Source: Psammoneis japonica
Taxonomy: Eukaryota
NCBI GenBank assembly: GCA_008632985.1
Contig: QPGO01000336.1
Location: 1 to 52,598 of the forward strand
Reading direction: 5' to 3'
DNA: 52,598 nt
Both the position numbers and the translations under genes were made by a program. The notes under the pieces were generated by a model, which was not told the DNA's origin, made no database searches, and saw only the letters and a program-made list of their open reading frames with translations. Below are positions 1 to 52,598 of the stretch, piece by piece (position 1 is the stretch's first letter; each line of letters starts with the position of its first letter).

Positions 1-649
1 CTGGCATGCTTTTTGCACAGAAGCTGCCCAAAAGCCAAGCACATCAGAGCCCACAATGTGGCGGCCATCACTTTCATTGGTTTTTGCCGCGCAGCTGCAT
101 TTTGTTGGTGTCATTCTTTTGATTGTGGCGCCAGTGCTTGAATGTTGTTTTCACAATGCAAGGTGTTTGACCTTTTCATGAGGATTTTATTTTGCCCATT
201 TGTGCTGATTGTTCATGCTCAAGCAACTCACATTTGCAAATGTTTTGTGACCAAAGCTTTGGGTGGTGACAACCCATGCTCCATGCCTTTGACAATTTGG
301 CTTTTGTGTTGGTTTGTGCTTTTTTGTTTTTGCCCCCCTCATGTGTCACAGCACACAATGCTGTCCACATCTGCCCAGTCACCTCTGTGTGTGCACGCAT
401 TTCCTTGTTGCTTCGCACCTTTTTCCAGAACTCTGTGACAGTTTCTCTGCTGTGTTCTCAGTCTTTTTTCTGCACACACCATTTCCTGCACATTTCACAA
501 CAACACACCCTCTCCCCAAAATCAATTTGACCAGAGTGTGCGATGTTGTGATTTGCTCACTTTCTGCATGTTCCGCGCAAACAGATGGCTGGCCACAGTG
601 ATCAACGTGCCCATCAGCGGAGGAGGNCCAACCCCAACCCCTCCTTTGT

Positions 650-1400
650 CTTTCCTGATGATGTCAATTTTGATGACACAGAACATTTCGCCAATGGCTT
701 CAATGGTTGAGTTTGTGCATCAGATCATTGCCGGTGAGGACCTCAATGACCCTGTCTCCGGCAAGCCTTGTTTCCATTTTTTTAGTGCAAAAATCTCAAA
801 TCTCTGATTGACGACTGAGCACAGGACCTTCGCGCTACAAAATTTGTTGTCAAAACAGCCGTGCATCCCATGTGGAGAAGGGTGGTGGAGTCGGGCAACA
901 CAAAGGTCATGGAGCTGGCCATGGCAAGCAACAAGGCACTGGCGCTGTTGGCATTGGAAAATTGCTGGAAGGTTTGGGAGCACAAATCCAAGCTGGAGGG
1001 AAAGGAAGAAGAGAGTGAAGAGGAGGAGAAGGAAACAAAACTGGCGCCCTTGCACACAGACCCACTGCATCAGCGCGACTCTTGGAAGGATGGGGAATGA
1101 AGCGATTCACTGCCCTGCTTGAGGAGTTGAAGGATGACAGGGCAAGTGAGCCGGGTGTGCAGCTCGACACATGGCACGCTGATGGAAAGAAAAAGGAGAG
1201 TGAGGGAAATGAAAAAAGAGCCAAACCACTGAAAAGCCAGCGGGGGTGGAGATGAGAATGCAAGCAACAACAGAGCTTTCTGGTGACAATGAGGACCATG
1301 AAGAGAAAACGGATGAACCAAGCAACAGAGGCAACAAGGAAGAAGATGAAGACAGCAAAGAAGACAACAATGACAAAGAACATGTGCAGACTGCAGTGCA
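650..1400 (+). pseudogene. Decayed ORF relic, acidic C-terminus, probably TE-associated
   Basis: Fragments ALALLALENCWKVW...PLHTD plus an acidic tail, broken by stops and frameshifts, in TA- and CG-depleted DNA. Family not securely recognised. Confidence 0.35.
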
Positions 1401-2165
1401 GGCCTGTTGCAACTTAAAAAATGCCAGACAACAGAGCATCAATTTGGCACTCATTGATGCACCATGGATGCATTCCAGCCCCAGGCGGGACTCCATGTTC
1501 CGCAGTGCCAGAAGTTGGTCAATGGATGCACCCATCTTCAACATCAAACAAATGGCCAAGCTTGTGGTGAAATTGTGCCTCTTGCCACTTGATGTTTTTG
1601 CAAGTGCACCTGCCCTGCACGACTCTCAAGACATTGCAGAATTGCGCTGAAACAAAAAATGTCAAGAGTTGTTGGAAGGATTGCTCAACAAGTGCACTGC
1701 AAAATGGGACCTTGCGCTGCTGAACTGTGACAACGACAGTTTTTGAATCATGTTGCATGTCAGGCACGTGGATTTCCACATGATTTTGGNNNNNNNNNNN
1801 NNNNNNNNNNNNNNNNNNNNNNNNNNNNNNNNNNNNNNNNNNNNNNNNNNNNNNNNNNNNNNNNNNNNNNNNNNNNNNNNNNNNNNNNNNNNNNNNNNNN
1901 NNNNNNNNNNNNNNNNNNNNNNNNNNNNNNNNNNNNNNNNNNNNNNNNNNNNNNNNNNNNNNNNNNNNNNNNNNNNNNNNNNNNNNNNNNNNNNNNNNNN
2001 NNNNNNNNNNNNNNNNNNNNNNNNNNNNNNNNNNNNNNNNNNNNNNNNNNNNNNNNNNNNNNNNNNNNNNNNNNNNNNNNNNNNNNNNNNNNNNNNNNNN
2101 NNNNNNNNNNNNNNNNNNNNNNNNNNNNNNNNNNNNNNNNNNNNNNNNNNNNNNNNNNNNNNNAA

Positions 2166-2344
2166 CGGCTGGTGCTGAGTCAACCGTTGTGACGTGTTAT
2201 CGGAGGGAAGCGTTGTTTTTCCCTCCAATGGCGCTCACTTGTTACGAGTAGTTGTAACAGGCCTAAGAGTATCTTTGGATCGTTAGATTGTTATCATACC
2301 AGTACTGTGAGTAGCTGAGCCACTCGGCAGCTGGATTTACTTGC
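2166..2344 (+). repeat. 5' LTR (3' part; start lost in N-gap)
   Basis: Ungapped 179-bp alignment to 8585-8763 with 12 substitutions. Confidence 0.9.
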
Positions 2345-2346
2345 TT

Positions 2347-2357
2347 TGTCAGAGCCA
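2347..2357 (+). other. Primer-binding site resembling tRNA-iMet PBS
   Basis: TGTCAGAGCCA sits immediately after the LTR end. It matches the canonical (TGG)TATCAGAGCCA with one TA>TG change; the leading TGG is absent. Confidence 0.6.
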
Positions 2358-2648
2358 CAGTCCGCACTCCGCGGTTTGGCGATGAAAAACGATGAATGAC
2401 GTGATTGTGACGGTCATGTCACGATGGCACGGTTTTGACGACGAATGCCAACTAACCTGAGGGTATTCACCGTTGAGTGATGCCTTCGCATCAGTGTATG
2501 CGCAAAGCAGTGGGAGATGAGGCCACATCTCCGCACTCTTGAGGCCTGCGCGCATCGTCAACGCGATTTTGTGAACGTCAAAGTTTTGATGCACTTCTTC
2601 TAACACAACTGCTTTGTCTTATGATGCTGTGATGACTCAAGTTTCACC

Positions 2649-3931
2649 ATGGCGGCAAACCCCCCGAACCCGATGGAAACGGCCCTTGCTTGGATCGGTT
2701 TCCAGTCACCTGCTCAGCGCAGCGCGATCATGACTGATGTCGCTGCGTTTGACGATGTCGTCGACATGAAGGAATCGGACATCGATGCGCTCGCGCAGTC
2801 TTACTCGAGGAGGACTGCTGCTGAGGGGCGTTTCCACTTTGGACCAGCTCGCACCCGTCGCCTCAAGTCCCTCATTCATTGGGTGCATGACTTCCAACGC
2901 GTTGGTGAAAATCCCACCATCGACGGTTTGGATCAGGCGCGTTTTTCTCGATGCGCCATCTGCTGCGTTGTCGAGGGCCGATGTTCGCAGCCAGATGAGG
3001 GATCAATCCAAGTCTGTTGCTCGTGAGGCATCCCCTGGACTCTTGGAGAGCGAAAAGGTCTGGGTAAAATGGAGTGCCGCTTTCAAGAACATGCTCAGCA
3101 CGATGCTGGGAGTCGACGGCGTTCCGTTGATTTGTGTCACACGCGAGAACGAGGAGCCCGAGCCTGAAGGGCATGAGACTTTTATGCAGAAGTCGGTTGC
3201 ATGCACTCCACTCGAGGGTCCAGCTTTCGAAGCTGATTCTCGCACCGTCAGCCAGCTAATCGTTTTGTTCACAAAAGGTGCCCCAAGCGAGCAGTGGATC
3301 AAAGAGCACCGCAACAGCCAGAACGGTCGTCTCTACTGCGAATCTTTGGAGAACCACTGTCAGGGCGAGGGCAATGCCACCCGTCGTATCTCAGAAGCTG
3401 AGCGTTTGGAAAACACTCTGCACTGCAGGAGTGAACGCTCCATGACGTTCGAAACGTTCGTGAACAAGCTTCAGGAGATGTTCAACATTTTCGAAGAGAA
3501 TGATGAACCCAAGATGGAGGCTCAGAAGCTGCGATTGCCACTCGACAAGGTGCAACACCAGCAGTTGCAGAACGCAGTGGAGACCCTGAAGGCGCAGAAT
3601 GAGTTTGGAGGAGGGATCAGTTTCCACCACAGCGTGCAACCATCTTGCCGCTAAAGTCGCCACCCTCCCGGAAACAGTTGCGCACCGTCGTGCGATTTCC
3701 TCTGTTGTGTCCGGCGTCAGCAAGGAAGGTGATTCCATTTACAAAGAAGATGGGTCCATTGACACCGGATTTCATAAAAATTGGCATCAATTGAGCAAGG
3801 AAGACAAGAAGAAGGTCATGGATGAGCGTGTGCGTTTGGGACTCAAGAAGAAGCCGGGTGACCCGAAGCGCCGCGCTGCATCCGTCAGATCACTTAAAAA
3901 AGAAGAATCAGAAGCTGACGTCCCAGCTTGA
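2649..3931 (+). pseudogene. Copia gag, frameshifted
   Basis: Overlapping ORFs 2649-3026, 2785-3654 and 3599-3931 join into one gag-like protein (GVDGVPL.CV.RE, PLEGPAFEAD, L.CRSERSMTFE.F) downstream of the PBS. Confidence 0.8.
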
Positions 3932-4116
3932 GCAAGCGAACTGCACTGTTTTCTTCCTTGGAGACCACTGCCGGCACCGATTCCGGAAACGTTGGTGCAG
4001 GAACTGGCGGTCGAGGCGGCAACAATGCCGGAGACGCATTTGGGGGGCACCAGGAGCGTCAGCGACGCAGCTGACTCCCAAGCTGGACCCTGCTTTGTGG
4101 CCTCATCCAGTTTGCA

Positions 4117-7100
4117 TTGTGGCCACTTCATTGGGGCGGGGGCCAGCCGTGTCGTTCGAAAGAAACGTTGGTTCATGGGGACTGTCGTTGCATTTGTGAA
4201 ATTGCTGCTTCCACACGACGAGTCTCTGCGGCACGGACTAACACGCGTGCCACTCACGTCCGAACAGACGATCAGGTAAAGCATGGACGACTAGAATTGG
4301 ATTCACATGCTGACACTGCTGTTTTTGGTTCGAACTTTACCCTCTTGGGTTACACTGGAAGAGAATGCGACGCATCGCCTTGTGACGAGGGATGCGAAGC
4401 CATCAAGAGTGTCCCAATCGCATCGGCGGCCACTGCGTGGACCTCACCAGCGATGGGAGCAACGCACATCCTGGTGTTCCATGAGGGGCTTTGGATGGCA
4501 GATTCCATGGAGAATTCTCTCCTTGACCCGAATCAGATGAGGCATTTTGGTGTCACGGTTCAGGATGACCCCTGTTCCGAGTTGCCGTTGCATGTCCTTA
4601 CGGAGGACAAGGGATTTATGCTACCTCTCGAGTTGATGGGAACTGGTGTCGTTGCGGCCACTCGGACCCCCACTGACAGGGAGCTCCAAGAGTGCCCACA
4701 CATCCAGTTGACCTCCCAACAACCTTGGGATCCACACAACGTCAAGTTTAAGCAGCCCAGACCTCGACGTTCTGTGGAGGAGGAAATGGAGTTGATTCGG
4801 TCGGTCGCAAGTGTTCGGTCAAGCCCCAGCTGCGCGTTTGGTCAGGATCCTGATTGTGGCAACCCTCAGTCCGGGGGCTGTTGTGATGGGAGACTTGTCT
4901 GCTGTGTGGACCAAGTTCAATCAAGATTGATGGCGTTAGTCCAGGTGGAAGCGGATGTTCAGATCGCGGCCACTGAGACGATCGGCTCGGAACTCGAAGA
5001 CGCGCCGTCCCCGAAGACTTTCATGTCCAAGGAACGGCACAGTTCTGTCACCGCTGTTGACTTGAGCGAGCGCTGGGGCATTGGATTGAAACAAGNNNNN
5101 NNNNNNNNNNNNNNNNNNNNNNNNNNNNNNNNNNNNNNNNNNNNNNNNNNNNNNNNNNNNNNNNNNNNNNNNNNNNNNNNNNNNNNNNNNNNNNNNNNNN
5201 NNNNNNNNNNNNNNNNNNNNNNNNNNNNNNNNNNNNNNNNNNNNNNNNNNNNNNNNNNNNNNNNNNNNNNNNNNNNNNNNNNNNNNNNNNNNNNNNNNNN
5301 NNNNNNNNNNNNNNNNNNNNNNNNNNNNNNNNNNNNNNNNNNNNNNNNNNNNNNNNNNNNNNNNNNNNNNNNNNNNNNNNNNNNNNNNNNNNNNNNNNNN
5401 NNNNNNNNNNNNNNNNNNNNNNNNNNNNNNNNNNNNNNNNNNNNNNNNNNNNNNNNNNNNNNNNNNNNNNNNNNNNNNNNNNNNNNNNNNNNNNNNNNNN
5501 NNNNNNNNNNNNNNNNNNNNNNNNNNNNNNNNNNNNNNNNNNNNNNNNNNNNNNNNNNNNNNNNNNNNNNNNNNNNNNNNNNNNNNNNNNNNNNNNNNNN
5601 NNNNNNNNNNNNNNNNNNNNNNNNNNNNNNNNNNNNNNNNNNNNNNNNNNNNNNNNNNNNNNNNNNNNNNNNNNNNNNNNNNNNNNNNNNCCTTGACTTC
5701 GGATTCTACGATCGGGTTTGGCACAGGGAGAATGCTGGTCTTGGTGACCAGAAGCTCGGCAGGTGGCTCGGAGTGTCCCACCGGATTGGCAGTCTAATGT
5801 CACATTACGTGTTGACGCAAACCGGTCATGTCATGTCGCGGACATCTGTTCAGCGAGTCACCAACTTGGAAGCTGGCACTCAAGAGAATCAAGATCGGTT
5901 CAAGGCTTTTGACGAGGAGATCCAGCGCAGACTTCGTGACCAAGATTTTCCCGAAGACGAAGAGCGCAGGATCAGCCCCGAAGACTGGAAGGACTGTCTT
6001 GGGTGTGACGATGAATTCCTCGACGAGTGCGATCGCGTCATCAGTTCTGAAGATGTGTCAAACAAGGACGACGACAAGAAAGACGAGGAAGCCTCCCCGG
6101 AAGCGGCGGATTGGTGTCACCTCAATGTGGAATTGGCTTTGCCGAGAGATGATGATGGTCCCGAGTTCGCGCGCGCAACGAAGAGGTTGAGGGATGCGAA
6201 CGGCATTCCCATTGGGACAGCCAACGACAACCCAATCCCAGATGCTCGAATGCATCAGGTGGAGCATCCCGATGGTCACACTGCAGCACTCTCAGCTAAC
6301 TCTGTTGCCATGAATGTGTTCGCACAGATTGACGAGGACGGAAATCGGCATGTTCTGTTCGACGAGATTGTGGACTTCTGTGCGAATGGGGACGTCCCGG
6401 AATCCGATTTCTTTGAAACTGAGCAAGGCAACAAGAGGCGACGCAGGACCACGAAAGGATGGGAACTCTTGTTCCAATGGAAGGATGGCAGCACTGCTTG
6501 GGTTGACCTGAAGGACGCGAAGGAAGGATTCCCTGTCCAGGTCGCCGAGTTCGCCATCCAACGCAAGATCTCGAAGGAGCCGGCGTTTGCTTGGTGGGTT
6601 CCGCACGCAATGAGGACCCGCAAGCGTTCTTGTTGCGAAGGTCAAGTCGAAGCATTGGTTGAGAACCCATGAATTTGGTGTGCGAATTCCCAAGACTGTG
6701 AAGGAGGCACTGGAGCTCGATTGTGCGAACGGCAACACCTCATGGCATGACGCCATTTGCTTGGAAATGAAGAATGTTCGAGTTGCGTTCGACAAGTTCG
6801 AGGGGGACGAAACGGAACTGCCTCCTGGGTGCCAACAAATCGACTGTCACATGATTTTTGATGTCAAGTTGGGAGAGAACTTTCGGCGCAAGAGTGGGAT
6901 GGTTGCGGGTGGTCACATGACCGACACCCCAACTGCCATCACCTGCTCCTCAGTTGTTTCCAGGGATTCGGCAAGGATTGCTCTTGCACTTGCCGCGCTC
7001 AATGACTTGCAAGTCTTTGCCTGCAACATCCAGAATGCCCACTTGACAGCGCCGTGCCGAGAGAAAATTTGGACTCGTGCCGGTGAAGAGTTTGGCGCGG

Positions 7101-8369
7101 AACGCGGTGAGATTGTGATTGCAGTCAGGGCACTCTACGGATTAAAGAGCTCCGGCGCGGCATTCAGGGCCTTCCTGGCGGAGACGCTTTGTGATCTAGG
7201 ACACAAGCCCAGCAAGGCTGATCCCGACGTTTGGATGAGGCCTGCAGTGAAGCCAGACGGATTCGAGCACTACGAGTGCATCTTGGTGTGCGTCGACGAC
7301 TCACTGTCGATCAGTCATGAGCCGATGAAGACTGTGGATGGCATCAAGTCGAAGTTCAAGCTCAAAGACGATAAAGCAGCGGAACCCGAATCCCACTTGG
7401 GTGCCAAATTGTCGAAGATGGACCTTGCTGACGGCACTGCCTGCTGGACGATGTCAGCAGAAGAATGCTGCAAGGCGGCGGTCCGGAACGTTGAGGACAA
7501 ATTGGCCAAGGAAGGAAAACGGCTACCGAGTAAAGCACACACACCTTTGAGCAGCGGATGCAAGCCGGAGTTGGACACTTCAGGCGAACTGGATGCAGAA
7601 GGCCTCAACTGCTGCCAAGAGCTGATTGGCGTTTTGATTTGGGCCGTGGAATTGGGCAGGGTCAACATCATTTTGGAAGTGTCAAACATGTCGGCTCACC
7701 TTGCCTTGCCGCGCATTGGTCACTTGGAACAGGNNNNNNNNNNNTTTGCATGCCCCCAAACAGGTCCCAAAGCGTCGGGTGGCGTTCGATCCTACGCATC
7801 CGGTCATCGACGAGTCTAGGTTCAAGGAGTGCGATTGGCTCGACTTCTGCCGAGACGCGCAAGAGGCGATTCCCCCCAACATGCCACCACCTCGAGGTGA
7901 CATTGTGTCTGCTCATTGTTTCGTGGATGCCAACCATGCTGGTGACGTTTCAACTCGCCGCAGTCATGCAGGCACTCTGATGTTCCTGTGCCGAGCACCC
8001 ACAATCTGGCACTCGAAGAGACAGAACACCGTGGAGACCAGTGCTTTTGGCGCCGAGATCGTGGCACTCAAGGTCACGGTGGAACTCATTGAAGGTCTGA
8101 GGTGCAAGCTTTGAATGTTTGGAGTTCCTGTTGAAGGTTCTACGAACGTGTTCTGTGACAATGAAGCAGTGTACAAGAATTGCTCCATCCCGGAGTCTGC
8201 TCTCAAGAAGAAGCATCATTCCATTGCATGCCATCGCAACAGGGAAGCTGTTGCTGCGGGGACTGTTCACTTGGCAAAGGAGGATGCGGAAACCAACCTC
8301 GCGGATTTGTTCACGAAGGTCATGACTTCGATTCGTCGCAATTTCCTGTTGGACAAGTTCACTTGTTGA
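4117..8369 (+). pseudogene. Copia pol (PR-INT-RT-RNaseH), frameshifted, premature stop, Tyr-eroded
   Basis: ORFs 4117-6672, 6659-7819, 7701-8114 and 8115-8369. Motifs include DSHADT, LGRWLGVSHRIG, CHMIFDVK, ALYGLKSSG, CVDD, SKRQNTVETS. An in-frame TGA falls at LRCKL*MFG (probably CGA>TGA). Confidence 0.93.
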
Positions 8370-8530
8370 ATTGGCGGCAAATGGGGTTTGGATTTTTGGG
8401 AATCGGGTCGGTGGTGATTTTCTTCCCCAGTGAGGGTTTACACCATGGCCAGCACGGAGTGTCAATGTGGTTGATTGCATTGGTTGAATTGTGTCTGTCA
8501 AGCACGCCCTTGGCTTGTTAGAAACATTTC

Positions 8531-8547
8531 AAGGGGACCGAAAGAAA
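8531..8547 (+). other. Putative polypurine tract / 3' LTR start
   Basis: AAGGGGACCGAAAGAAA lies ~160 bp after the RNase H stop and just upstream of the region homologous to the 5' LTR. Confidence 0.5.
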
Positions 8548-8763
8548 TCCGATGTGTCGGATTTAGTTAGAGTGCTGTTGGTGGCGGCTGGTGCTGAGTC
8601 AACCGTTGTGACGTGTTGTCGGAGGGAAGCATTGTTTTTCCCTCCAATGGCGCTCACTTGTTACGAGCAGTTGCAACAGGCCTAAGAGTGTCTTTGGATC
8701 GTCAGATTGTCATCACACCAGTGCTGTGAGTGACTGAGCCACTCGGCAGCTGGATTTGCTTGC
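8539..8763 (+). repeat. 3' LTR
   Basis: 8585-8763 aligns to the 5' LTR. The start is inferred from the PPT and an imperfect terminal inverted repeat (GAAAGAAATCC ... GGATTTRCTTGC). Confidence 0.8.
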
Positions 8764-9694
8764 GATGTGGAGATGCCAGATGCCCACCGCGGATGCACTT
8801 CCAGTCAGCGCGATGGCGCCGCTGTTCAACCGCAGTGTTGCTGTGATCTGGGTCTCTGCCAGTGGAAAATGCAAGGAAACTGAGCTTGCAGGGATGGGAA
8901 GACTTGCTGGCGTGTTGCTCCCTTTCCATTCCCAAGCTGCAATGGCATGACCAGAGGGAGGGAGAGGAGGGAGCACTTTTAACCTGGTGTTCACACTGCT
9001 CAACTTGTTGCCGCTGCTGCTGCAGCGAAACTCGCCACCCCCCTCTTACAAAGAGCGAGAGAGAGCAGCAGCGGCAGCGCTGGTTTGCCAACTTGCTCAC
9101 ATTCAATTGGTGATGAGAGGGGTGTCAGGGGGTTGTGAGCTCAACTGGCAATGAGGAATGAGGCATCTCCCCTTGTCTGTGTCTTGATGGCCAGGCTGGA
9201 AACTGGCATCACTTCATCCGACCTCTTGTGGTGATCTGGTGCTCCAAGGGTCTCGAGGGAGCTGAGCTTGCAGGGATGGGAAGACTTTGTCATTGACCCT
9301 TTTCCCTCCAAATCTGGAGTGGCATGGATGCTCCAGTGACGTGCACATGCAGTGCAAGGCAAGGCACACACCAGAGGGCAGCGTTTGGGAGGGCAGGGCA
9401 GGCCTGGCCTGGCTGGGCGGCTGTGGCAAGGCAAAGCAGTGTGCCACACAGCTGAGAAGGCTCTTGGCTTGGTGGCAAGTTGAGCCTTGGCATCAGGGTG
9501 AAGAACAAAACTGTCACCAGCCAATGAGCAAAAGTTCACTGCAGAGTTGGGGGTTTCAGAATTCTCGCGTGCTTTGTGGGGGCAATGTGTGTCATCCAGG
9601 AGGGGTCACAACTGCACAAGGGTTGGAAAAGTGTCACCTGGGTTGCATCAAAGACCTTCATTGCCCTCAGCCTGCTGTTCTTGGGTTGGTTGGT

Positions 9695-10262
9695 GCTTTT
9701 GCAGTGTCCTTTCACTGTGGTGTGTTGGGATTTTCAAGTCTCAGCCTTTCTGAGGCAAAGTGGCTGCTGGGGTGGCACAGCTGCATGAGGGTGGCCTTGC
9801 AACCCTCAACGACAGATCTCCAAGTGTCGCATGTGGTCTTGAAAAGACCCTCAATGCCCTCAGACTGCAGTTGTTGGGTTTGCTGGTCTCGCCATGGCAG
9901 TGTCCTTTCACAGCTGAGTTGGGATTTTCAAGTCTTACCCTCTTTGTCCTTGCAAGCTTCAAAACCACAGTTCTCAACACATTGCCTTGGGTGTCCACCC
10001 TGCAGCTCTCAGGTTGGTGGGTGCCACCATCATGTCCTTTTGCTGTGTGGAGCTGGGGAATCCAAGTCTTGCTCTTTGTGAGGTGAAGCAACAGGGGGGG
10101 GGGGGGGGGCAAAAACTGCTGCGCACACAAGGCCACCAGCAATGCTCTTGGCCACAGCTCTCAAACCCCACAATGCCCACAGGCTGCTGTTCTTGGATTG
10201 GCCAGTCCCCTCCATTGTGTCCTTTCACAGTGCAAGGTTTGAGTCTTGTCTTTCTTGTGAGG
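9695..10262. repeat. Degenerate dispersed-tandem repeat (4 copies of a GTGTCCTTTCAC...TT.CAAGTCT core)
   Basis: Core copies near 9701, 9897, 10031 and 10213. Confidence 0.6.
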
Positions 10263-15065: not shown

Positions 15066-15121
15066 GTTCTGACAGTTTTGTCAGCCCCAACTCATCTTCT
15101 TGATCGGTTCCTGCATCGGTC

Positions 15122-34623: not shown

Positions 34624-34688
34624 AACCCTACAATCATGTACGTGATTACTACGTAATGTTTATGGAAAGAAAGAGTATTGTCGAACCT

Positions 34689-41488: not shown

Positions 41489-42203
41489 TATACAATGACA
41501 AGTTAGGGAGACTCGTTGAAAAGCTTGAAAGAACGGGTGCTATGTGGAACGACTTTTGCAGTTTCTAGCTACACGCGCTTGTGACAAACACGATGAATTG
41601 CTGAGCTTACTCTCTCAAGACGCAGTACTGTTTGCCAGGAGACGGTGGAAGCTGCCATTCAGTCTTAGATTCGACTGATGATGCACGCATACACGCATAC
41701 CTCTAGAAAGAGGTCGGAGAAGAGCAAGATGGTCATTTAGCATCCGGCAAAGATTGGCTTGGCTGCTTCAACGCCTGCGCAGCTAAACTGCAGAGCCACC
41801 AGTTTTAGTTTTTAGTTAGAATTTTTGACAAGTTGGTAATTGTCGATGGAATTTATTTCGTTTTGCGCCATTGGTCTTGACACGCGTTATCTTCAGTTGA
41901 CACGCCGTGTTACCTGTAACAGAAGGCGTGATCGGAGATAGCAAGGGACCAAAAAATGGTGGGAAGGCCGTTCCAGTCATGTTCCTTTCATGTGCATCAA
42001 AATTTCAACCTCATAATATATATGTTGATCTTTATATAAAGACTAAATTTTGTATTTAAATAACACGATTAAATACGACCTAATTACCGGATAAAATATA
42101 TCACAAGAAGACTCAACGCACATTTTGAAATCGTGGGGAAGGGGTCAAGAAACGAGATGCGGCAGGTGTTGCCACATTTCTCACCGTGCTTGTCCTTTCG
42201 ACC

Positions 42204-42806
42204 ATGCTGAAGAAAAAATCGAGGCGTTCCATCACCCCAGAGACGCCAATGATGTCTCCCAAAAAGCAGATTGATCAAGACCGTGTAGTGACAAAAGGTA
42301 GAGTGCGTTTCAGTTCGGAGTCCACTCAGCTAAAGGTGATTCCCAGGAGAACCCCGTTGGAACAGAGAGAGTGTTGGTTCACCGCACACGACTACGCGTG
42401 TATCAAGAGACGCAATCAAGCTGCGATTAATAGTGCCAAGAACGGGATGTTCTTTGAGACTGAGTACGAGACCATTCGGGGTCTTGAAAAATTTATTTGG
42501 TTTGCTCCCAACGAGAAGCAACAACGACGAAAAGCTACCATTGGACGGATTCTGAGTGAACAGAAACGACAGAAAGCGCTTGGTATTAACGACCCAAGTA
42601 TGATAAAGGTGTTGTCGTCCATATACTCCAACTGGGAAAAAGATAAGGCCCTTGAGCTGGCAGCGGAAGACGAAACTGGCGTGTTAGAAACCAGAGAACC
42701 GAAGTTTCCGAGTTTCGAGAAGATGGTCGTCGTCGCAAATTGTGTCGAGAATGCGATTGAGGCATTCGCGAGTAACGCATTTGAACGTCGTACTATATGG
42801 TTGTAG
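42204..42806 (+). CDS. Diatom-type hypothetical protein (VRF...W....RGLE...ILSEQ..Q family)
   Basis: Intact ORF with the family motifs. Confidence 0.7.
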   Translation: MLKKKSRRSITPETPMMSPKKQIDQDRVVTKGRVRFSSESTQLKVIPRRTPLEQRECWFTAHDYACIKRRNQAAINSAKNGMFFETEYETIRGLEKFIWFAPNEKQQRRKATIGRILSEQKRQKALGINDPSMIKVLSSIYSNWEKDKALELAAEDETGVLETREPKFPSFEKMVVVANCVENAIEAFASNAFERRTIWL

Positions 42807-42950
42807 ATACAATATGCGAGGCAAGAAACGGCGAAGAGGCCACAGAAAATATTATTCATATGTGAAAAATGTAAACTGAGAAGAACGCTTTAAACTACTT
42901 GAAGATTTTGTACAGTCAAGCAGACTCTCTCGAACCGCGTCTAGTACATA

Positions 42951-45081
42951 TTAGCTTTGCTGAAACGCAACAGCTGCTGCTCTAAGTGGTGCAGCTTGAA
43001 GCATTGTAGTTGGTCGATCCAGCCACTTAGATTCTTTGGATGCTTCCCAGACCTCGCCAAAAACTTTGGTACTGAGGTTCGTCAATCCCCTCGCTTGCAG
43101 TGAGGATAAGGTGAAGAGAAAGTTATTCGAAACAAACTCCAAGACAGTTTGACACAACGCTTCGTCATTTTCCTTGACAATCGGAGCCCAGTAGCGAAAA
43201 ATATTGACGAGGAGATTCTTGAGTCGATACACTTGGCCTTCCGTTGCAAACTCCATGGCTTGGTCCAAGAAGTCAATTTGAGCCGCCTTGGCTGCTACGT
43301 CACTGCTAGCGACAAGTATAGGAATAGACACAGAATCGAGGCATTCACGGATGTATTGCACCAGTCGTACCCTCAGTCGAGTCACACTACGACTATGTGG
43401 CATAATCCCAAACACCCAACGACAAAACGAGGATATCGCCGTCTGGCTTGTCGAATATAAATTGTAGGCGCCCAATTCCAAAATTTTGACAACAGCGGCA
43501 ACCAAAATCTTGTCAATAACTTGTTGAAGAGGTGATGCATCCTCCGATTCGTCTTGGTCGCTGTCTGAACTTTTTAACATTTCTAACCAGTCGAGTTGTG
43601 GGTGCTGTTTCTCCCCGAAATGCAAAGGATTCAAGTCCGAGCACATTTCAACGCGGACAAGAACACCCAACAGATCGGCAAAACTAAGAGACGCAAAGCA
43701 CTGCTTGTATTCATCTGGATAGTGTTGTCGCCATTCCTCAAATACGCCAAAGAGACTTGACGTCGACGTGTAATCCTCGCTCAGTTCCTGCTTTGCGACA
43801 TGAAGCGCCTCTAAAAGCGCAGTCCGTCGCTCTTCCTGGTCCTTTTCTTCATTCGAAGAGAAACCGTTACTCGAGTAGTAGTCTTCCAGTGAGAGGCTCT
43901 CGTCCGTTTGTTGCTTTTCCCATTCTTGTCGACTCTGGCGTCTCTGTCGTGCGCGCTGTTCTCGTTGCAGCGATTGTTGTGATTTGACATCTCTACCGAA
44001 TTCATCAACTTGCGTCGCAACTTCTCGTGCTGGTATTTCTACTTGTTTTCCCAATACGCGGTCCAGTAACTGTGCCTCGGATAACGTCGCAATGACATCT
44101 GCCTGCCATTCTGCAAGTGCTGCGGAGAAGAGATTTCGGTTTCGAGTTCCAACAAAGCTTGCTGCACCGGCTGTACTTTGGATTGCAGTTCTCGCAAGGC
44201 CCCTACCCATGACGCTAGTGTCAGTCGGAGCTGCTGATAATACTCCAAAGCCTTGCTACTCTTGTCGAGTTCTTGTTCGTGTCGCTGTAATTCTGACCTT
44301 GTCTGCTGCAGTTCCACCATGCGAACATCGTGAGCTTGTTTTATGTCATCCTGTTGGTTCCTCAAGTGACCCAGCGTCGATTCGACTTGTTGTTTCAATT
44401 GACTGAGCTTGTTCGAGGCGTCACCGTTTGTGTTTGGTATGGCTTTGGAAGGTAGAATGCCTGCTCGACGAGCAACTTGCGCCTCCCAATCTTGCGCTTC
44501 AGCATTACAATCGTCGGTAGCAGGAAAGGTTTGCTGCGGTTCCAATTCCATTTGCTCATGACTTTCATTCTGGTCAAAATTAATCGCCTCTTCTCCTGCC
44601 AGAATGACTGGCTCCTGTCTCTTAGCGGTGGAGAGAGGTATGTACGAAGGGAGAGACGTGCCTCCATCAGCTTCTACGTCTCGCGTCTCGGTACGTTGCT
44701 CCTCCGCTTCGTTCTTCTTTTCAATCTTTTTCTTTTGAAACGTTGCTGCGACTTGAGCTTCTCCATCGCTTCCTTTCCATACATGTCAGATTCGACGGCT
44801 TCGACGGTTTCCTCTTCAGCTTCAACAGTTATTTGTGCTCCGCCATAGCCCATACCGCCTCCTTTTCTCTTTTTCTTTTTCGTGGGTTCTTCTGTATCCA
44901 ACTCGAACGAAATTTTGGAGGGAACTTTGGCTTTCTTTCGCCCTGATTTTTGCTCTTTGGACAGGACGCTTTACCACTACGATTTCATCTTCGGAAGACG
45001 ACCACCATCTTTATCATCACCACTACTAGTTGACGTCGTCACGACTTTCTTCTTTTTCGGTCGTTTTGTGGGTCGAAACAT
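42951..45081 (-). CDS. GCFC-domain protein (GCFC2/PAXBP1/ILP1-like, spliceosome-associated); several apparent 1-bp frameshifts
   Basis: FEEWRQHYPDEYKQCFASLS..DLL...VRVEM (GCFC domain), a coiled coil and WEAQVARRAG. The 5' part is split over ORFs 44674-44901, 44395-44667 and 44039-44551; ATG at 45081. Confidence 0.75.
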
Positions 45082-46569
45082 GCTGATTCGGTACAAATTC
45101 TTGTTCACCTAAATAATCACGAGAAGCATAGCTCAGTTTTTATTCACACAGACAACATGAAGCGAAGGATCATTGTGTAGGGCCCTATGTTCCGGGTTGC
45201 GGGCGGGTTTCAGGTTATGCGGTATCGTCTGCGGTGTGCTGCTAATTCTGGAGCTCGGACCTCGACAAAGAAGACGTCATCGGTCATCGGCGGCAGTTTT
45301 TTTTTGCTACCGTAGAGCCTACGGCGGAATTGGTAATCCGATAGAGAGTACCAAGTTCCTACCAATTTTCTACATACGATATAATGGTATTAATTCTACT
45401 TAGGTACACAAAAAAGATAGTGATTGAGAAATTTAGAAACGGTCACGACACAACAAATCTCTTCGACTTTGCGCTCTCTCACACTCGTCGTCTCGCACGA
45501 TGTGTTGTTGTTTGCCAAGCCTGAATGCCGTTATCGCCAAGGATGGCTCGCCCTTCCTCTGGATTGAGACCTTGCATTTGTTTGGCATTCCACAACTCAT
45601 TATGCTTGATGGCGTGTTGTCTCTAGGTGGCGTAGGTGTTGCCAGTTAAGTCCAGAGGTCGGGGCAAATCGAATGCGTCTCTCCGGCCTTGAGTCCATGT
45701 CACTCTCGTGTCTTTGAGCGTAGGAAGTTGCCTGTTCGCTTGACCCGTCAGGTCACGGCTGTTGAAACAGACAGCGGTGTTCGTCTGCGAAGCAGCAAAA
45801 GCTCGCCGAGCAGATCATACTGTTGACGGAACACAGGTTTGGGGTTCTGTCGTATCAGTGGCATGATACGGTAAGTCTTCACTCGTAGGGAGTGTTGATT
45901 TAGAACACGGTTGACTCGCAAGTTTTCTTGTTGTCTCCGTAGTACGTCCCCCCTTTTACTTTTTTTTTTGTGATATTTTGTCACTCTGAAGATACGTAAA
46001 AGCTTGAGCGCTATCTTTTGATGACGCTCTTGAGGCAATGTTACCCTACGCTACCAATTTATATCAACTTTTGATATTGGTGTGTCTCGAATATTTGAAA
46101 CACGCTTTGAACCTTTACAGTAGATGTAGAAATACTTAAAGTACGACATAGCAATCTTTATTGGCGTGTTATTCATTCCGTGCGTACGTCAATGTGGACT
46201 GCGATGGCGGTCGTAGCGCTTGCAATGTCATCGCACACTTTAAACATGGGGTCCGCGACGGGGCATTCGTTACAGCGTGTTGTCGTTGATATGTGCTGGA
46301 CTATTTCGGCGCTGATCGCCTGCATATTTTTATCGATTCGTCGTATTCACTTGTTGTTCGGGAGGAACAGAAGAATGCCGACTCTATGGATTCCGCTTGA
46401 TCCTGTCAATGCACTTCTGTTTAAAATTCAAGCACAAAAACCAGAGGAAGCAGCGCAGAGCTACACATTACAAAGTCCATTAAAGATCAATTATGAAACA
46501 AATATACAGTAATATGAAGGAAAGTAGAAGCTGAACCGATCCTCCTTGAGCTGTCCATCCTTTTGTCGC

Positions 46570-49500
46570 TTAAACAAGGGGAGTCGTCTCAGTTTCTACT
46601 TCATTCTGCTGAGCATATGCCACCTTGATATCTACAACGTTCATACAACCTGGCCATACCTCTCTCCACGCAGCTCTCATTTCGTGGCTTAGTTCAGGAT
46701 GGTACCTTTCGAATTCCACCGGGCTTCCCGCAAAACAAACGAGAACGGCATTGACCGAGCTACTAATGATTCCAAACAGGACACTGGTCAATACCAGCCC
46801 GACAAGCACGCCAATTCTATCGTGTGCGATACAAATAAGAAATGAGCAAGGAAACAAACAAGGCAAACGAGCTTCCACTGGAAATTAGAACTTACGCAAA
46901 CGCCTTTGCCGTCGCTCCCTGCAAAGCTTCTCTGTCGCCATTGATAAAGTTAAATCCTTCCAAATCTTCCACCAAAGACCCAAAGACCCCGGTGCAGCCT
47001 CCAATTACCAGACTAACCATGAGTAAAATGTTTGGGATCAAGTCGTCCGCCACAATCTGCGCCCAGCCTCGCTTCTCAAATAGCTTCGTGGCATGGTGAC
47101 CGGCATCAAGCAAGCTATATCCATACAATCCAACATAGGTAAAAGCAAACGGATTAAAATATGCCGCCAAATTGTCCGCCACGGAAGCAATGCAATTTTG
47201 AATACACGACAGGCACTCGTGCAAGCACATGAGAGCCGTGTCGTCCACTTGGTTGGGACGGAAAAAGAGCGAAAACTGACGAATGAGACGGACGGGTCCG
47301 ACAAGAAGGCTTCCAAAGCAAATGGATCCAAAGTACAAGGAAATTGAATACAAGACATTCCTTGTAGGAGTTCCGTCGCAAAATCGAGCATGTTCCTTAA
47401 ACCACCAACAACCAATCGTCCCGGCCACCGAAACTTGGACAATATTCTGAACAGCAAACCGTGAAAATAGAGGATTAGATGAATCGAAACTCCGTACTGA
47501 GACACAACAATCGTAAACAATATTCTTACCAATAGCACATGAAATGTCCAATAGTAAGAAATGGCAAGCATGGTGTACAGAAATATTGTAGCCTGTTTAC
47601 CAATGACAAGATCGCCAGTTTCAATGGCGTCGTATACACCCACAACAACAAAGGTGTAGTAAATGGACCAACCCAACGCCAATCCTTGAAAGAAAATGAN
47701 ATTAACACGGTTCCAAAGTTTTCTCGGATAGCACTGAGCGCCGTCAGCAGATTCGCCGTGGCAAAGGGGATACGGTCCCAAACGACAAAGGTATAACCAA
47801 CACTCAGTGCAAGGGCAATGATTCCGGTAATGGGAACAATATTCTTTGGGCTCAGACCAATCCCAATGGTTCCCCAGCAAAAGCTCAAACCAATCGTCAG
47901 AATGAGCGCCACTTGAACCACACGACGAGCAAACACTGCCATGAGCCACAAGACGAGCGACGACACGGCAATTGCAAAGGCCCCGCAGAGACAAGCCACA
48001 TAAATGACATTTGCATAAGCCACCGTCACGTGTAAAGGATCATCGTCGTCATCAATTGAACCGTTCCTTCTGCTAAACGCGTCGGGACCATACATGGAAC
48101 CCAAGTACACCATGCCAATCAAGTGCAAGACAAACAAGACTGCAAACAAGACATCCTGCAAGCCTTGGGCTGTTGCGTACCCTTGGATTCTTCCATGTAG
48201 ATTTGTGCCGACTGCTGTCGCATATTCATCTTTCGGATGGATTGCGCCGATCGCTTGTGCCTACCGGACGATGATGATTCCTTGTTGGCTTGAATCAAGT
48301 CCTCAGGGACACCACCACCCTCTTCCACAAAGTGCCCAAGCTACGGGGTGTGTGAGGAGAAAACGTCACACCACGAGGATCCTCACCACCGCCGGGATAC
48401 GATGACGGACCACTATTACTTCCTTTGCGAAGGACCGATGCCGGAGGAGGAGTCATGGTTGCCGGAGACAAGCCCGGCGGAATGCCCATGGTTGTGTGAG
48501 GCGAAACCTGTTGGTAGGTTTGTACAGGAGACTGTGGGGGTGTCCTTCGGCTCCCACTTGTTGGTCGCTGCGGCGAAAAGGCATTGGCCAACGACATGAT
48601 TTCGCCGCGAGGAGAAAACTGACTGCGAGGAGAATATTGCTGTCGAGGGAGCTCTTTCGGGAGTAATTCCGGCGGATGTTGGAGGCGGAACTGGCTGCTG
48701 CATGGAGCCGTACTGCTGCTGGATTTGTCCTGAAGCAGAAGAGGATCGTACCCGGTTGCTAGAGAACTGTTGGTTGCGGATACGACGAGAACCACCATTC
48801 TCCATAGGTGATGCGTCTACGGCCATCCCATCTTGATTTAAAATAGGAATGAGGGGATTGCCCGCAGGAGAAAGGGCGGGTGACTGACCATTCCAATATC
48901 CTACCATATCTGGAACCGGTACGTTGGGATCACTCTGAACACGGTGATGCCCACGCATACGTTGGTGCGCTGGTGGACTCTGATACATTACCTGCTGCTG
49001 CTGTTGCTGCTGCTGTTGCTGCTGCTGTAACATATACTCCTGATACGTGGCTGGAGGATACAGTTGAGGAGGGATGGGGTAGCGCTGCTGCATCTGTTGC
49101 GCATAATATGGATCTTCCTGAGGATGTCCGTAGTAACGATAATCTTCACTGGTCGTTCGTCGATGGTGGTGATGGTGGCGCCGAGAATGATGACGTTCGC
49201 TTACTGCTTTCTTCCCAAACTCATTAGAAGCATACTGCTCTTCTTCCGTCAGCATGGGGCCCAAGTCTGAATTTGCTTTCTTACGCCTCCTCCTTCGCTC
49301 TGATTTACTAGACGTTCTGGTTGAGCCTCTGGAGTCGACCGCAGCAACTGGAGGCCGCGCCGTAGCAGAGGGCCCAATGGTTTCCAGAATGGATGGCTGC
49401 TGCAGAGCTGTTGATGGTTCTACGAGTGGCTTGGTAGGCGGATCCTCGCCTGCTGTGTCTTCACGGTTGTCAGTTTGCGGTGTTGCGGTCGAAGTTGACG

Positions 49501-49606
49501 CCGGCGAGCCAATGTTGTTCTGCGTCATGGTTGTTGCCTCGGGGAAAAGTTGCCGAGGCCCGGCGTCTTCTACCGCCACTCCTCCAGCCATCATGGTCTC
49601 AGTCAT
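46570..49606 (-). CDS. Choline-transporter-like (SLC44/CTL/PNS1 family) protein with a long disordered polyQ-containing N-terminus; introns at 46817-46895 and 47447-47529
   Basis: QDVLFAVLF, RIPFATANL, VAGTIGCWWF, FGSICFGSLLV, FNPFAFTYVGLYGY, SSVNAVLVCFA. GT-AG introns. Exact structure of the 5' half is uncertain (frameshifts, one N). Confidence 0.85.
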
Positions 49607-50774
49607 GTGGGGTGGTGATGGCTACTACTTCGCAGTTATCACCCCCACACGACGGGATTGCCGGGAAACAACTCCGGCACGTTTGTGAATTCTTCCGCTT
49701 CATGTCGCGTCCCGCATGCATCGTACTTGGATCGCGAGCGGAGTTTTCCCGCCAAAAATACCGGCAGACAAAATGAAATTTTCATATCGAATTTTTATTT
49801 ATTTAGGACGGAGAAACTTGACGTCGTAGTTCTTAAGTGATCTGGCGTGCTTTCCACGTGTACTTAATAAAAGAAATTTTTCGACCGTTAGATCAATGAA
49901 TGATGTATTCGGATATTAATAGATCACTTATTGGACAAACTTCCGCAAATCATTTCGGACCCACACTCGCGATCTCACTCTTCGCAGACCGGAAAGCTCA
50001 CCCACCACAAAACGACATGGCATTGACACGCGTTACCAGCGGCCCTTCCCGGGCGCAGCAGCTCTTTGCTGCACCTTCTTGATGGCTTGTCAAGGGTCAT
50101 TGATGGATGAAAAAATCAAACGGCACTCTTTGTCTCTCGCTCGTTCGTCAATTTCAAAACTGAAAAGCTTTGAGTTTGCCACAACATTTTCGGTTGTCAG
50201 CCTTGCACAACAATGGCCGACATTGTTGCTGTTGCTCTCACATGGCTCTTCCCACAAGAAGTGTCCTCCTTTGATGTGTGCCAGCATTTCAAGTGTTGGT
50301 CTTAGATTGTTTCTCTCTCGACGATTTTTTGGTTTCCAGCGGCCAAGCTGTGCAACAACGTGGCGGCTGTGCCGACCAAACTCATTTTTCCATTTTTTTG
50401 TGTGGTGTCAAGGGCATGTTCATCCTGTCTCTGCAGACTTTTTCAAGCAAACAGAACATGGAATGCATTGACATGGTTGGGAAATCACATCTGAGTTTTG
50501 TCACACCACTGGGGGCACAAAGGCGTGTTTGCAATGTCAAAACACGCAGATGAGAGCAATCAACCACGAGTGCATCAACTTCTCCAACAAAGGTGCAGAC
50601 AGACAGACAAAAAAATGTCATTCCAGACAAGGTCAAAAAGCAACAATGTGCTGACAATGGCGGAACAAATCTGTGCCCAAATGACACCCCAGCCCACTTT
50701 CGGAAGTTGAGAGCTTTCACAGTGTTCCGCGACATGGAGAGTGTTGGTCAGAGCTCTTTTGCAGTGGATCAACC

Positions 50775-52553
50775 TTGTCTCTTGACCACTCTCCATTTCT
50801 GCTTCTGGCTTCATTGCAATCCATTGAAGCTTGGGTGGGTCCCTCTGCCATCACCTTCTTGGGCTCGACTCCATCCTGCCGTGTTGCCCTGGATTCAACA
50901 GCAACACCAGCAGCTTTGCATCAGGCAACTTTCAAGACTGCTGTGGAGCCAGATGATCCATCAACCACAGACTTGGGTGGACAATGATGCTGCAGCACAT
51001 CTCATGAACCTTGTCAAAATCAATCCCAAGTCCAAGGCAGGGCATGCAGCCAACTCGTGGCCACAAAGCAGGTGCCGGTGCCCCACAACCTCCTTGATTT
51101 TGTCTGGCTGGAGGCTGGGATTGGGGTGCCTTTTTGCATGTCCTCTCTCAAGATCATGGTCAATGGTGGCACCAGTGGCCCACAGGAAGTTGGTCCACAG
51201 TCAAGCCCTTGACTGGCATCATGGAAATGTCGTTGCTCCAAGGGCCTGGTCAGAATGCAGGGGTCTGTCAAAAAAGACTTTGAAAAAAGACATTTGTGGC
51301 AGTGGCAATGCAAGCTTCTTGGGAGGTCTGGGCACACTGCATCAAAAGAAAAGAAAGATGAAGAGGAGGACCTTTTGACAGACAGCAAAGCCCATGTCAA
51401 ACATGTGGGAGGCCCGCTGCACACGTGCAACAGCAAATCTTCCACCACAACAGTGTTGGAAGTCACCGTTTGACCTCTCACTGTTGTCAATGCTCCCCTG
51501 GACGTCAATGGATTGGTTGACAACATTTTGGAGTTGTTGTCTGAGAATCGCATTTTGGAGTTCTTGGCCATTGCACCCAAGCCAGCCAAAGAGGAAGAGG
51601 AGTGCAAGACAAACAGACCAAACAAAGAAGAAGCCAATGAAGCTGAAGGGGGAAATGCCTCAGAAAAGAAACCCTTGGGAGAATGATTGAACTCAACCTT
51701 TGACAAGGTTGGTGGCTTGGATGCCCAGCTGGACTCCATCATCCATTGTGTTCTTGCCAGTGGCGCCACCCCTGAAGCTGCCAAATGACTGGGCATCAAC
51801 CATGTCCAAGGCATTCTTCTGAGTTCTGAGTGGGCCTCCTGGTTGTGGGGTGACCTTGTTGGCAAGAGAGTTGGCAACCTTGTCAGGTGCCCAAGAACAA
51901 ATTGTCAACGGCCCTAAAATTCTTGATGAACTCATTCCGAAAAGCAAGTCCAAGCCCTCTTTGCTCCTGCAGAACAGAAATGCAAACAAGCTGGCAACAT
52001 GTCTGCTTTTTTCACATTGTTGCTCTCAATGAAATGGACGCCATTGCCAGAAAGAGAGGCAGCGTGACAAGCAACATGGCTGGAGTGTGTGGCAGCATTG
52101 TCAACCAACTGTTGGCCATGACATGGATGGAGTCCAAGAGGCCAACAATGTCCTCATTGTTGGACTTGTGTGAATCAACCTGATCTGCTGGATCCAGCGT
52201 TGTTGCATCCTGGTTGACTGGAAGTGCATCTTTGGGCAGAATTGCCTGATGATGCTGGCAGAAAAGACATTCTTTGAGCTCATGCAAGGTCAACAAAGGA
52301 GGCAGGAGGAGTCAGCAAAGATGCCCAAGCATGTCTTGAAGACCTTGGCAAGAAGGGATTGCCTGTCATCACAGAGCACTGCACTGGAGCTGAACTTGCA
52401 GAGGCTTGGTGCGGAGTGCTGCAAGCTTTGCCTTGGCATGCACCACAGTGGCAGCAGGATGATGATGGTGCCAATGGTGTTCTTGCAGTCAAAGACCTCA
52501 ATGATGCCTTGAGAGAAGTTCGGCCAGTCTTGGGAAGCAAGATGAAGTTTTGA
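50775..52553 (+). pseudogene. NSF: NSF/Sec18-like AAA+ ATPase relic, heavily TpA/CpG-mutated
   Basis: VGGLDAQL..I...LAS, LGINHVQGILL, GPPGCGVTLLARELA, IVNGPKILD, EMDAIARKRGS...GV..SIVNQLL, MDGVQEANNVLIVG, PG*LEV, spread over several frames. A signal-peptide-like FLLLASLQSIEAWV lies near 50790. Confidence 0.8.
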
Positions 52554-52598
52554 AGGCAAGATGTCCTCATGGCACTGGCCTTTGCTCTTCTTCCATGA

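Follow-up and report, generated by a model that had tools for sequence, protein, structure and literature searches.

In Neurospora and other fungi, repeat-induced point mutation (RIP) is triggered by duplication and makes TpA from CpA and TpG by C-to-T changes, and ADAR and APOBEC enzymes act on one strand of RNA or cDNA, leaving strand-biased patterns. Loss of TpA was reported in mutation-accumulation lines of Bigelowiella natans, a rhizarian alga, in which two integrated viral regions received 231 of the 302 nuclear mutations (Mettrop et al., bioRxiv 10.64898/2026.01.13.699255). According to this preprint, nearly all mutations in those regions were A to G or T to C, and all of those lay on TpA; of the two regions, one is transcriptionally silent and present as a single copy; the hypermutated zone extends about 21 kb beyond the earlier viral annotation, and windows poor in TpA and rich in CpA+TpG cluster; and a role in defence was proposed, with an ADAT2-like deaminase as the candidate enzyme (bioRxiv 10.64898/2026.01.13.699255). 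The preprint was the sole relevant item in our full-text literature searches, which returned no description of TpA erasure in diatoms. Here we analyse a stretch of 52,598 nucleotides from the diatom Psammoneis japonica (assembly GCA_008632985.1, contig QPGO01000336.1, positions 1 to 52,598 of the forward strand; this whole stretch is called the window below), in which gene islands of ordinary composition alternate with sharply bounded blocks that have lost nearly all of their TpA. One of these blocks holds a copia-type long terminal repeat (LTR) retrotransposon, whose reverse transcriptase (RT) and paired LTRs record the direction of the change: TpA has become TpG or CpA.

A two-state hidden Markov model on P(A|T), the probability that a T is followed by A, was used to segment the window into TA-free DNA (2-2197, 2499-22549, 25516-26020, 35817-38914 and 49931-52596; 26.6 kb in total) and TA-normal DNA (2198-2497, 22550-25513, 26026-35806 and 38925-49929). 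In TA-normal DNA an A follows 1059 of 6374 T (0.166), and in TA-free DNA it follows 121 of 6636, where 1103 would be expected. Across 200-bp windows, the observed/expected (o/e) ratio of TpA has a bimodal distribution that peaks at 0-0.1 and at 0.5-0.7. In 500-bp bins the ratio is 0.00-0.23 over 1-22500, mostly-N bins and the bin with a spared 5' LTR excepted, and likewise 0.00-0.23 over 36001-38500 and 50001-52500; bins between these stretches lie at 0.28-1.00, except for 25501-26000, which holds a TA-free mini-block. A sequence-only reading of the window had proposed this partition, with sharp borders and enrichment of TG/CA in the TpA-free parts, and both features are real; its TpA counts were exact on recount (three in 35810-38610, one in 50310-52598 and 11 in 22801-22860), and it had named a unimodal distribution of TpA o/e as evidence to the contrary. 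Two features were absent from it, the 505-bp TA-free block at 25516-26020 and the TA-normal patch at 2198-2497.

Four borders, A to D, separate the large blocks from the gene islands. The neighbouring TpA confine border A to the interval from 22337 to 22510/22550, border B to that from 35759/35806 to 36240, border C to that from 38844 to 38925 and border D to that from 49929 to 50034. The TG+CA content, counted per 100 bp, jumps in the very bins that hold the borders, and CpG shifts within 100-300 bp of them. Gaps of N lie at 1790-2163, 5096-5690, 14524-14927 and 21504-22033, with three further tiny gaps; none coincides with borders A-D, and positions 22034-47699 form a single gap-free stretch that contains both TA-free and TA-normal DNA. 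Contig joins or contaminating DNA, which the sequence-only reading had raised as another source of such borders, therefore do not account for them.

The two kinds of DNA also differ in content. A Pfam search of the 60 open reading frames (ORFs) of at least 100 amino acids (aa) in TA-normal DNA found TMEM144, pirin, HA, GNAT and choline-transporter-like domains, and among the 100 such ORFs in TA-free DNA only a copia-type RT (RVT_2) scored above cut-off; matches to ATG11, DUF4131 and DUF3649 in TA-free ORFs were below their Pfam cut-offs. Recognisable host genes thus all lie in TA-normal DNA, as had been proposed. The companion claim, that all transposable element (TE) sequence is TA-free, is true of the only recognisable TE domain but not of the 5' LTR at 2198-2497, which is TA-normal and stands beside a gap. 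Copy number was gauged from contigs of one public sample (X1, possibly the source sample itself) that matched with a likeness of at least 85%, as summed depth; exact single-copy matches have a depth of about 30, and the window's own letters are uncovered at several places. Summed depth is 230-19667 in two stretches, 1-9.3 kb and 12-14 kb, and 40-190 between 14.7 and 20 kb, so much of the left block is repeated DNA, and the proposed association with repeats holds in that much of 1-14 kb is multi-copy.

The copia element comprises three features:

2164-2445, + strand: 5' LTR of the copia element, truncated at its left end by the gap 1790-2163; TA-normal patch at 2198-2497
2499-8582, + strand: copia interior (gag-pol, with the RT at 6614-7732), TpA-erased and CpG-normal; RVT_2 match with E 1.5e-11
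8583-8866, + strand: 3' LTR of the same element, TpA-erased

The copia interior has 2052 sequence relatives (best E 2.7e-161), with a tblastn footprint of 5812-8363. In an alignment of the RT with 60 relatives, 13 columns hold a conserved Tyr, and the window copy keeps two of these and reads Cys at six and His at five; 195 of the 223 other conserved columns are kept. The catalytic YVDD motif reads CVDD. Across pol, 22 columns have a Tyr consensus, of which nine read Cys and six His in the window, with five Phe/Gly columns in two poorly aligned end pieces left out of this count. The Cys and His outcomes alternate along pol in 8 runs against 8.2 expected, and no strand-coordinated tracts were seen in this end state. 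The copia ORFs as a whole contain 0-0.6% Tyr.

The two LTRs give the same direction from DNA alone. The 5' LTR pairs with 8583-8866 at 93.3% identity over 179 bp (blastn), and over 287 bp when both are compared in purine/pyrimidine space. It keeps 12 TpA, and at those sites the 3' LTR reads TG five times, CA five times and TA twice, so that in the LTR as in pol both products occur, on either strand. Of the 12 mismatches in the 179-bp core, ten are TA in the 5' LTR against TG or CA in the 3' LTR, one is of CpG type and one is another transition, and none is of the TA type in the reverse direction. The TA-normal patch at 2198-2497, which comprises the 5' LTR and leader, has 86 T, of which 15 are followed by A (P = 5e-11 at the rate of TA-free DNA), and its TpA include RTAY sites (R, purine; Y, pyrimidine) that are almost never kept elsewhere. 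Set against the two other mismatches at about 155 positions, accumulated by two copies, the loss of 10 of 12 TpA in one copy suggests a rate excess of roughly two orders of magnitude.

Pooled over TA-free DNA, TA is at -39.9/kb, CG at -18.0/kb and TG+CA at +57.9/kb, so that the deficits equal the excess; the latter divides into 27.8/kb TG and 30.1/kb CA, and TC stands at -2.8/kb. This balance holds block by block and for each class of flanking bases (sums of -0.1, +0.5 and -0.5 per kb). Among 79 environmental loci with RT relatives, 78 have 50.9 TpA/kb and share a single rho_TA mode at 0.6-0.7, while the window copy has 7.5/kb. These four independent lines (tyrosines, LTR pair, mass balance and relatives) establish TA to TG and TA to CA as the direction of change, and the TA-free state as derived, not native.

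Part of the TG/CA excess comes from ordinary CpG decay, which acts here too and has the same products, but which cannot remove TpA. CpG is normal in the copia element, in the 14.9-22.5 kb block and in the mini-block (GC 0.52-0.57), and it is depleted at 1-1.8 kb, at 8.9-12.5 kb and in the cores of blocks B-C and D (rho_CG 0.07-0.37). The young copia element has lost about 85% of its TpA with its CpG intact, so TpA erasure is either faster than CpG decay or independent of it, and the normal CpG of several TA-free blocks marks the two as separate processes. The CpG loss in what are probably older TA-free parts is the record expected of cytosine methylation. Sister contigs from the public sample differ from the window at 883 places, 40 of which were listed; among the 32 best supported of these, 16 have CG in the sisters and TG or CA in the window, which points to copy-specific CpG decay alongside TpA erasure. 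Another seven are TG in one copy and CA in the other at one site, which shows that different copies took independent hits, on opposite strands, at one ancestral TpA, and three are TA against TG or CA.

TpA survival depends on the flanking bases. Relative to TA-normal DNA, survival is 0.27 at YTAR, 0.095 at sites with mixed flanks and 0.02 at RTAY, an order that recurs in all five block groups (Fisher p = 2.6e-15); ATAT, ATAC and ATAG have no survivor in TA-free DNA, whereas normal DNA holds 219 such sites. Survival agrees with an additive per-strand model, the log survival of mixed sites (-2.35) lying near the mean of the two extremes (-2.61). On each strand, the A of 5'-TAY-3' would then be converted about three times faster than that of 5'-TAR-3' or, equivalently, the T of 5'-RTA-3' would be the faster target. 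Mixed sites show an imbalance of products in the predicted sense, but a weaker one: at YTAY the excess of TG is 9.4/kb against 6.5/kb for CA, and at RTAR that of CA is 9.6/kb against 7.4/kb for TG.

The TA-normal DNA consists, apart from the 5' LTR patch, of three islands:

22550-25513, + strand: island with a TMEM144-like gene (PF07857, E 3.2e-08 at 24330-24776); rho_TA 0.79
26026-35806, strand not assigned: island with pirin, duplicated HA-domain genes and other ORFs (Pfam pirin and HA matches)
38925-49929, strand not assigned: island with a GNAT acetyltransferase, a choline-transporter-like gene and others (Pfam matches)

The named relatives of the transporter gene are almost all from diatoms, with a best identity of about 60%, so this diatom has no close representative among named records. 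Host ORFs contain 2.1-3.4% Tyr, against 0-0.8% in TE ORFs. Genes begin or end close to the borders. A putative first exon (ATG at 22622, then GTAAGT) lies 72-112 bp from border A, an exon that is our own reading, as Pfam backs only 24330-24776 of this gene. The ATG at 35468 is about 220-340 bp from border B, the 3' end of the ORF at 39316 about 390 bp from border C and the ATG at 49606 about 320 bp from border D; the mini-block ends, on its right, about 105-110 bp short of the pirin ATG (26130). A by-eye search for target-site duplications or TG...CA termini at borders A-D and the mini-block found nothing convincing.

Host duplications within the islands serve as a control for the effect of sequence identity. 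The paralogous host segments 27256-28003 / 34665-35404 and 28999-30144 / 33038-34193 belong to a local duplication of the HA-domain genes and neighbouring ORFs (27256-30144 and 31982-35404, 67-81% identity), and a 272-bp host tandem pair at 34346-34895 has 83-86% identity; all are TA-normal. Across these paralogs (67-86% identity) the differences are mostly transversions, and those of the TA type make up only 6-13% and are symmetric. The host paralogs are thus untouched, which argues that erasure is not triggered by homology. In a purine/pyrimidine self-comparison of the window, no TA-free block proved to be a mutated copy of TA-normal DNA, matches below about 140 bits looking like noise.

We propose, with a probability of about 0.65, that these blocks record DNA-level hypermutation of transposon DNA from TpA to TpG or CpA, acting after integration and targeted by region or state, not by homology. 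In this nuclear scaffold, the DNA between the gene islands would be transposon-derived and mostly repeated, and would have been mutated after it integrated: TpA would be converted to TpG or CpA (A:T to G:C at TpA, on either strand) at roughly two orders of magnitude above background, with ordinary CpG decay (CG to TG or CA) superimposed in the older parts, so that both processes would feed TG/CA. The pattern itself, its direction, the symmetry of the strands, the flanking-base rule and the sharpness of the borders are observed; action after integration, regional targeting and the chemistry are inferred from them. Targeting would be by region or by the silenced or foreign state of the DNA, and erasure would stop within about 80-435 bp, as set by the spacing of flanking TpA, leaving 70-390 bp to the genes alongside. 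Provided that the assembly is correct, a spared 5' LTR joined to an erased interior and 3' LTR means that the process acted after integration, was not triggered by identity and left a border inside the element. The opposite fates of the two LTRs, the untouched host paralogs and the TpA-richer 5' end of an environmental element described below lean towards positional targeting, perhaps with promoters spared. For the chemistry we favour adenine deamination by an ADAT/TadA-like enzyme; the natural tRNA target of such enzymes is an A that follows a U. As a self-complementary step, TpA leaves T to C before A and A to G after T indistinguishable by sequence.

Several points weigh against this proposal. 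The spared 5' LTR abuts an N gap and the contigs do not confirm its join to the erased interior, so the assembly may be chimeric there; in that case the best argument against a homology trigger and for post-integration action would fall. The by-eye search placed no TE termini at borders A-D, so regional erasure cannot be told from erasure of exactly the inserted DNA, and each block may be a TE insertion, or a nest of them, with the insertion edges as its borders. The per-strand model predicts a strand choice of about 3:1 at mixed sites, where about 1.5-2:1 is observed, and a strict need for a 5' purine in the Tyr to His changes is ruled out by three His that follow C at Tyr codons. Being old and short (270-1190 bp aligned), the host paralogs make a weak test of a duplication trigger, and the copy-number data cover 1-20 kb.

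The strongest competitor over targeting is a RIP-like homology trigger, under which multi-copy sequence would be mutated over its exact repeated length and the borders would be repeat ends. The high summed depths of the left block, set against about 30 for single-copy DNA, agree with it, as does the TA-normal state of unique host DNA, coding or not. We nonetheless consider it unlikely: the LTRs were identical at birth, but 12 of 12 TpA survive in one and 10 of 12 are gone from its mate; the host paralogs and the 86%-identical tandem pair are untouched; the main Bigelowiella target is, in the preprint's account, single-copy; and at position 1627, in the bin of highest depth, where the window reads CA, most of the sister depth (5518 of 8356, from 22 contigs) still reads TA. 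RIP proper is set apart by two defining features. The likeness is plain, a dinucleotide-specific burst of transitions that kills transposons and leaves a lasting compositional record in sharp blocks beside normal genes, but the direction is opposite, TpA being destroyed here by A:T to G:C, and RIP mutates both copies of a duplication, whereas here one LTR is spared and host duplicates are untouched, with the caveats of the gap and of old, short paralogs. It is considerably less probable that retrotransposon RNA or cDNA was edited by an ADAR- or APOBEC-like deaminase and that copies arrived already mutated, with insertion edges as borders. That the sole classifiable element is an LTR retrotransposon, and that each copy has its own pattern (the TG/CA doubles), would suit such editing; deaminase-type hypermutation of selfish elements is a shared trait, and ADAR is said to favour U before the edited A. 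Here, though, both strands are about equally hit (9 Cys/6 His; 5 TG/5 CA), the LTR asymmetry is 10 to 0, de novo mutation of integrated DNA in situ is documented in the Bigelowiella preprint, and erasure extends beyond the retroelement to a tandem repeat of about 175 bp and to unclassified DNA.

Least credible of all is that the TA-free state is native, or a systematic sequencing or assembly error at a modified base. Base modifications can in principle bias base calling, but catalytic and conserved tyrosines are replaced, the relatives are TA-normal, independent contigs from the public sample match TA-free sequence with 0 differences over up to 1355 bp (with the proviso that this may be the source sample), and both kinds of DNA share gap-free contigs. 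A different chemistry, compatible with regional targeting, is tenable but doubtful: a TET/JBP-type enzyme would oxidise the T of TpA in silenced DNA to 5-hydroxymethyluracil (5hmU) and on to 5-formyluracil, which would mispair with G and yield T to C, much as 5-methylcytosine (5mC) decays at CpG. The TG and CA outcomes are symmetric and without strand runs, as expected of a symmetric duplex mark, and 5-formyluracil is reported to give mainly A·T to G·C through fU·G mispairs (PMC7051996). In dinoflagellates, 5hmU is reported to be enriched on TEs, to silence them and to prefer TA and TC, a mark on the T of TA that offers a model for a domain-wise mutagenic mark; the part of that work available to us describes no mutational footprint (PMC11572971). 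TC is not depleted in the window, unlike that reported preference, which counts somewhat against thymine oxidation, and the authors of the Bigelowiella preprint favour an ADAT2-like adenine deaminase.

Regional hypermutation of silenced DNA raises the question of chromatin. In Phaeodactylum tricornutum, H3K9me2/3 and H3K27me3 are reported to mark mainly copia TEs (PMC4504042), and a link of the TA-free blocks to heterochromatin, which the sequence-only reading had suggested, is plausible as a good hypothesis; the 505-bp mini-block and the 300-bp spared patch are smaller than usual heterochromatin domains. Speculatively, and with odds that we place well below even, silenced diatom chromatin might bear an enzymatic, strand-symmetric, mutagenic mark at TpA, on A or T, which would record silencing as TG/CA. 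Such a mark would stop at active promoters, which would explain the spared 5' ends of genes and the spared 5' LTR, and the system would be common to Rhizaria and stramenopiles, an old genome defence of the stramenopile-alveolate-rhizarian (SAR) group and a counterpart of 5mC and CpG decay.

The window and Bigelowiella agree in the main outline, as far as the preprint reports it: A:T to G:C on TpA, giving TpG or CpA according to strand, and limited to integrated foreign or selfish DNA, outside which the genome is normal. They differ in host (a rhizarian there, a diatom and hence a stramenopile here), in targets (integrated giant-virus (nucleocytoplasmic large DNA virus, NCLDV) and virophage DNA there, LTR retrotransposons and other repeats here) and in the extent of depletion, which is mild there (rho_TpA 0.45 in the NCLDV region) and near saturation here (0.02-0.10). 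The rate was measured directly in Bigelowiella and is estimated here, at about 100-fold, from the LTR pair. In the sections consulted, the preprint mentions no diatoms, flanking-base rule, 100-bp borders or co-located CpG decay, although its supplementary tables may hold sequence contexts. What the window adds is a quantified partition, the mass balance, the flanking-base rule, the mini-block, an apparent border inside an element, the paralog control and a second case from the environment.

If our proposal is correct, transposons are killed by a targeted A:T to G:C mutator in diatoms, a group of major marine primary producers whose genetics are well developed. The mutator would be a mirror image of fungal RIP, and diatoms would be the second lineage to show a process whose one report to date is a 2026 preprint on a rhizarian alga. 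The rho_TA of sharply bounded blocks would then offer a simple read-out with which to map the process across genomes, to date insertions and to overlay methylation and histone maps, and the strong preference for RTAY over YTAR is a specificity that any candidate deaminase or thymine oxygenase must reproduce. There are practical consequences as well. TpA erasure badly blunts profile-based TE annotation, Pfam missing most domains here and scoring the RT at only E 1.5e-11, against 2.7e-161 by direct sequence search, and without TAA and TAG stops long false ORFs distort gene prediction, as GC and dinucleotide statistics are distorted too. In TA-free DNA only TGA stops remain, and ORFs in blocks other than copia and 14.9-21.5 kb are within chance.

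The signature is rare among relatives of the RT. Tyr to Cys or His replacement marks only 2 of 120 database relatives (P0051 and P0076) and, among the 79 environmental loci, a single one, which means that hosts of these elements do not generally share the process. P0051 has 3 Tyr, 9 Cys and 4 His at 17 Tyr-consensus columns, and P0076 has 7 Tyr, 2 Cys and 4 His at 14. The environmental locus (L060:1-6429) is an unrelated, gap-free contig from a public metagenome, encoding copia gag-pol with 0.2-0.4% Tyr; of its 17 Tyr-consensus columns eight read His, five Cys and four Tyr, and TpA survival follows the same order, YTAR > mixed > RTAY. Between about 600 and 6000 the contig is poor in TA; TpA is much more frequent in its first 600 bp, although that end too is short of RTAY sites. 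No LTR pair was found in this contig, and the purine/pyrimidine alignment of its ends was weak. We take it to be a second, independent record of the process.

Beyond the copia element, the TA-free DNA is made up of seven blocks, strand unassigned in each:

2-1789: repeat block, TA-free and CpG-poor, from the window's left end to an N gap; rho_TA 0.03, rho_CG 0.37, depth 976-19667
8867-12500: TA-free, CpG-poor block with no recognisable coding sequence; 3.3 TpA/kb, 12.1 CpG/kb, 220 TG+CA/kb
12501-14523: partly erased, CpG-normal, high-copy repeat; 10.4 TpA/kb, depth up to 2829, tandem families D1 and D6
14928-22549: TA-free, CpG-normal, low-copy, once-coding block; ORFs on + at 15104-18990 and on - at 18439-22409, class unassigned
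25516-26020: TA-free, CpG-normal mini-block of 505 bp; 1 TpA against 22.3 expected (P = 7e-10), rho_CG 1.02
35817-38914: TA-free block B-C with a CpG-poor core; 6 TpA among 858 T, rho_CG 0.22, ORFs within chance
49931-52596: TA-free block D, running to the window end and CpG-poor from about 50.5 kb; 3 TpA among 656 T, rho_CG 0.30

TE nature was assigned by sequence for the copia element only, and blocks B-C and D and the mini-block carry no TE assignment. The mini-block sits between the TMEM144-like and pirin genes; no relative of it was found, and its ORF had no atlas match. Pfam blanks say little in TA-free DNA, since Pfam is equally blank on the integrase region of the copia element itself: 2770-6669, the part with gag, protease and integrase, gave no match at E <= 0.01.

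In the once-coding block at 14928-22549, ORFs reach 544, 428, 367 and 357 aa, where shuffled sequence gives 361 aa at most and has its 95th percentile at 306, so the 14.9-21.5 kb stretch once encoded proteins. These ORFs have 0-0.8% Tyr and the block has one distant relative (E 1.6e-11); a second contig with about 90% identity covers 18274-18671. The 544-aa ORF (15104-16735) had no atlas match, no relative among 2620 candidates and none in viral contigs, and the ORF at 17025-18308 likewise had no match in viral contigs. In the block at 8867-12500, ORFs are within shuffle expectation and summed depth is 42-87 in the 10.0-12.0 kb bins.

The stretch 1335-2001 has a summed depth of about 19,700, some 650 times single copy, and represents a very abundant dispersed repeat; Rfam has no match in the window, so this very high-copy stretch near 1.5 kb is not ribosomal DNA. 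One contig of the public sample joins the end of the copia LTR core (8763), with two letters between, to sequence like that from 234 onward, and may represent another copia copy beside the same repeat as 1-1789, or a nested or tandem arrangement. Block B-C contains a diverged internal direct repeat (36106-36297 / 37786-37976). The tandem repeat of about 175 bp lies at 14107-14523 and resumes after the gap 14524-14927 to 15068, and its copies over 14107-15068 differ mainly by CG against TG (10 of 27 differences), with CG against CA once, a one-sided form of CpG decay.

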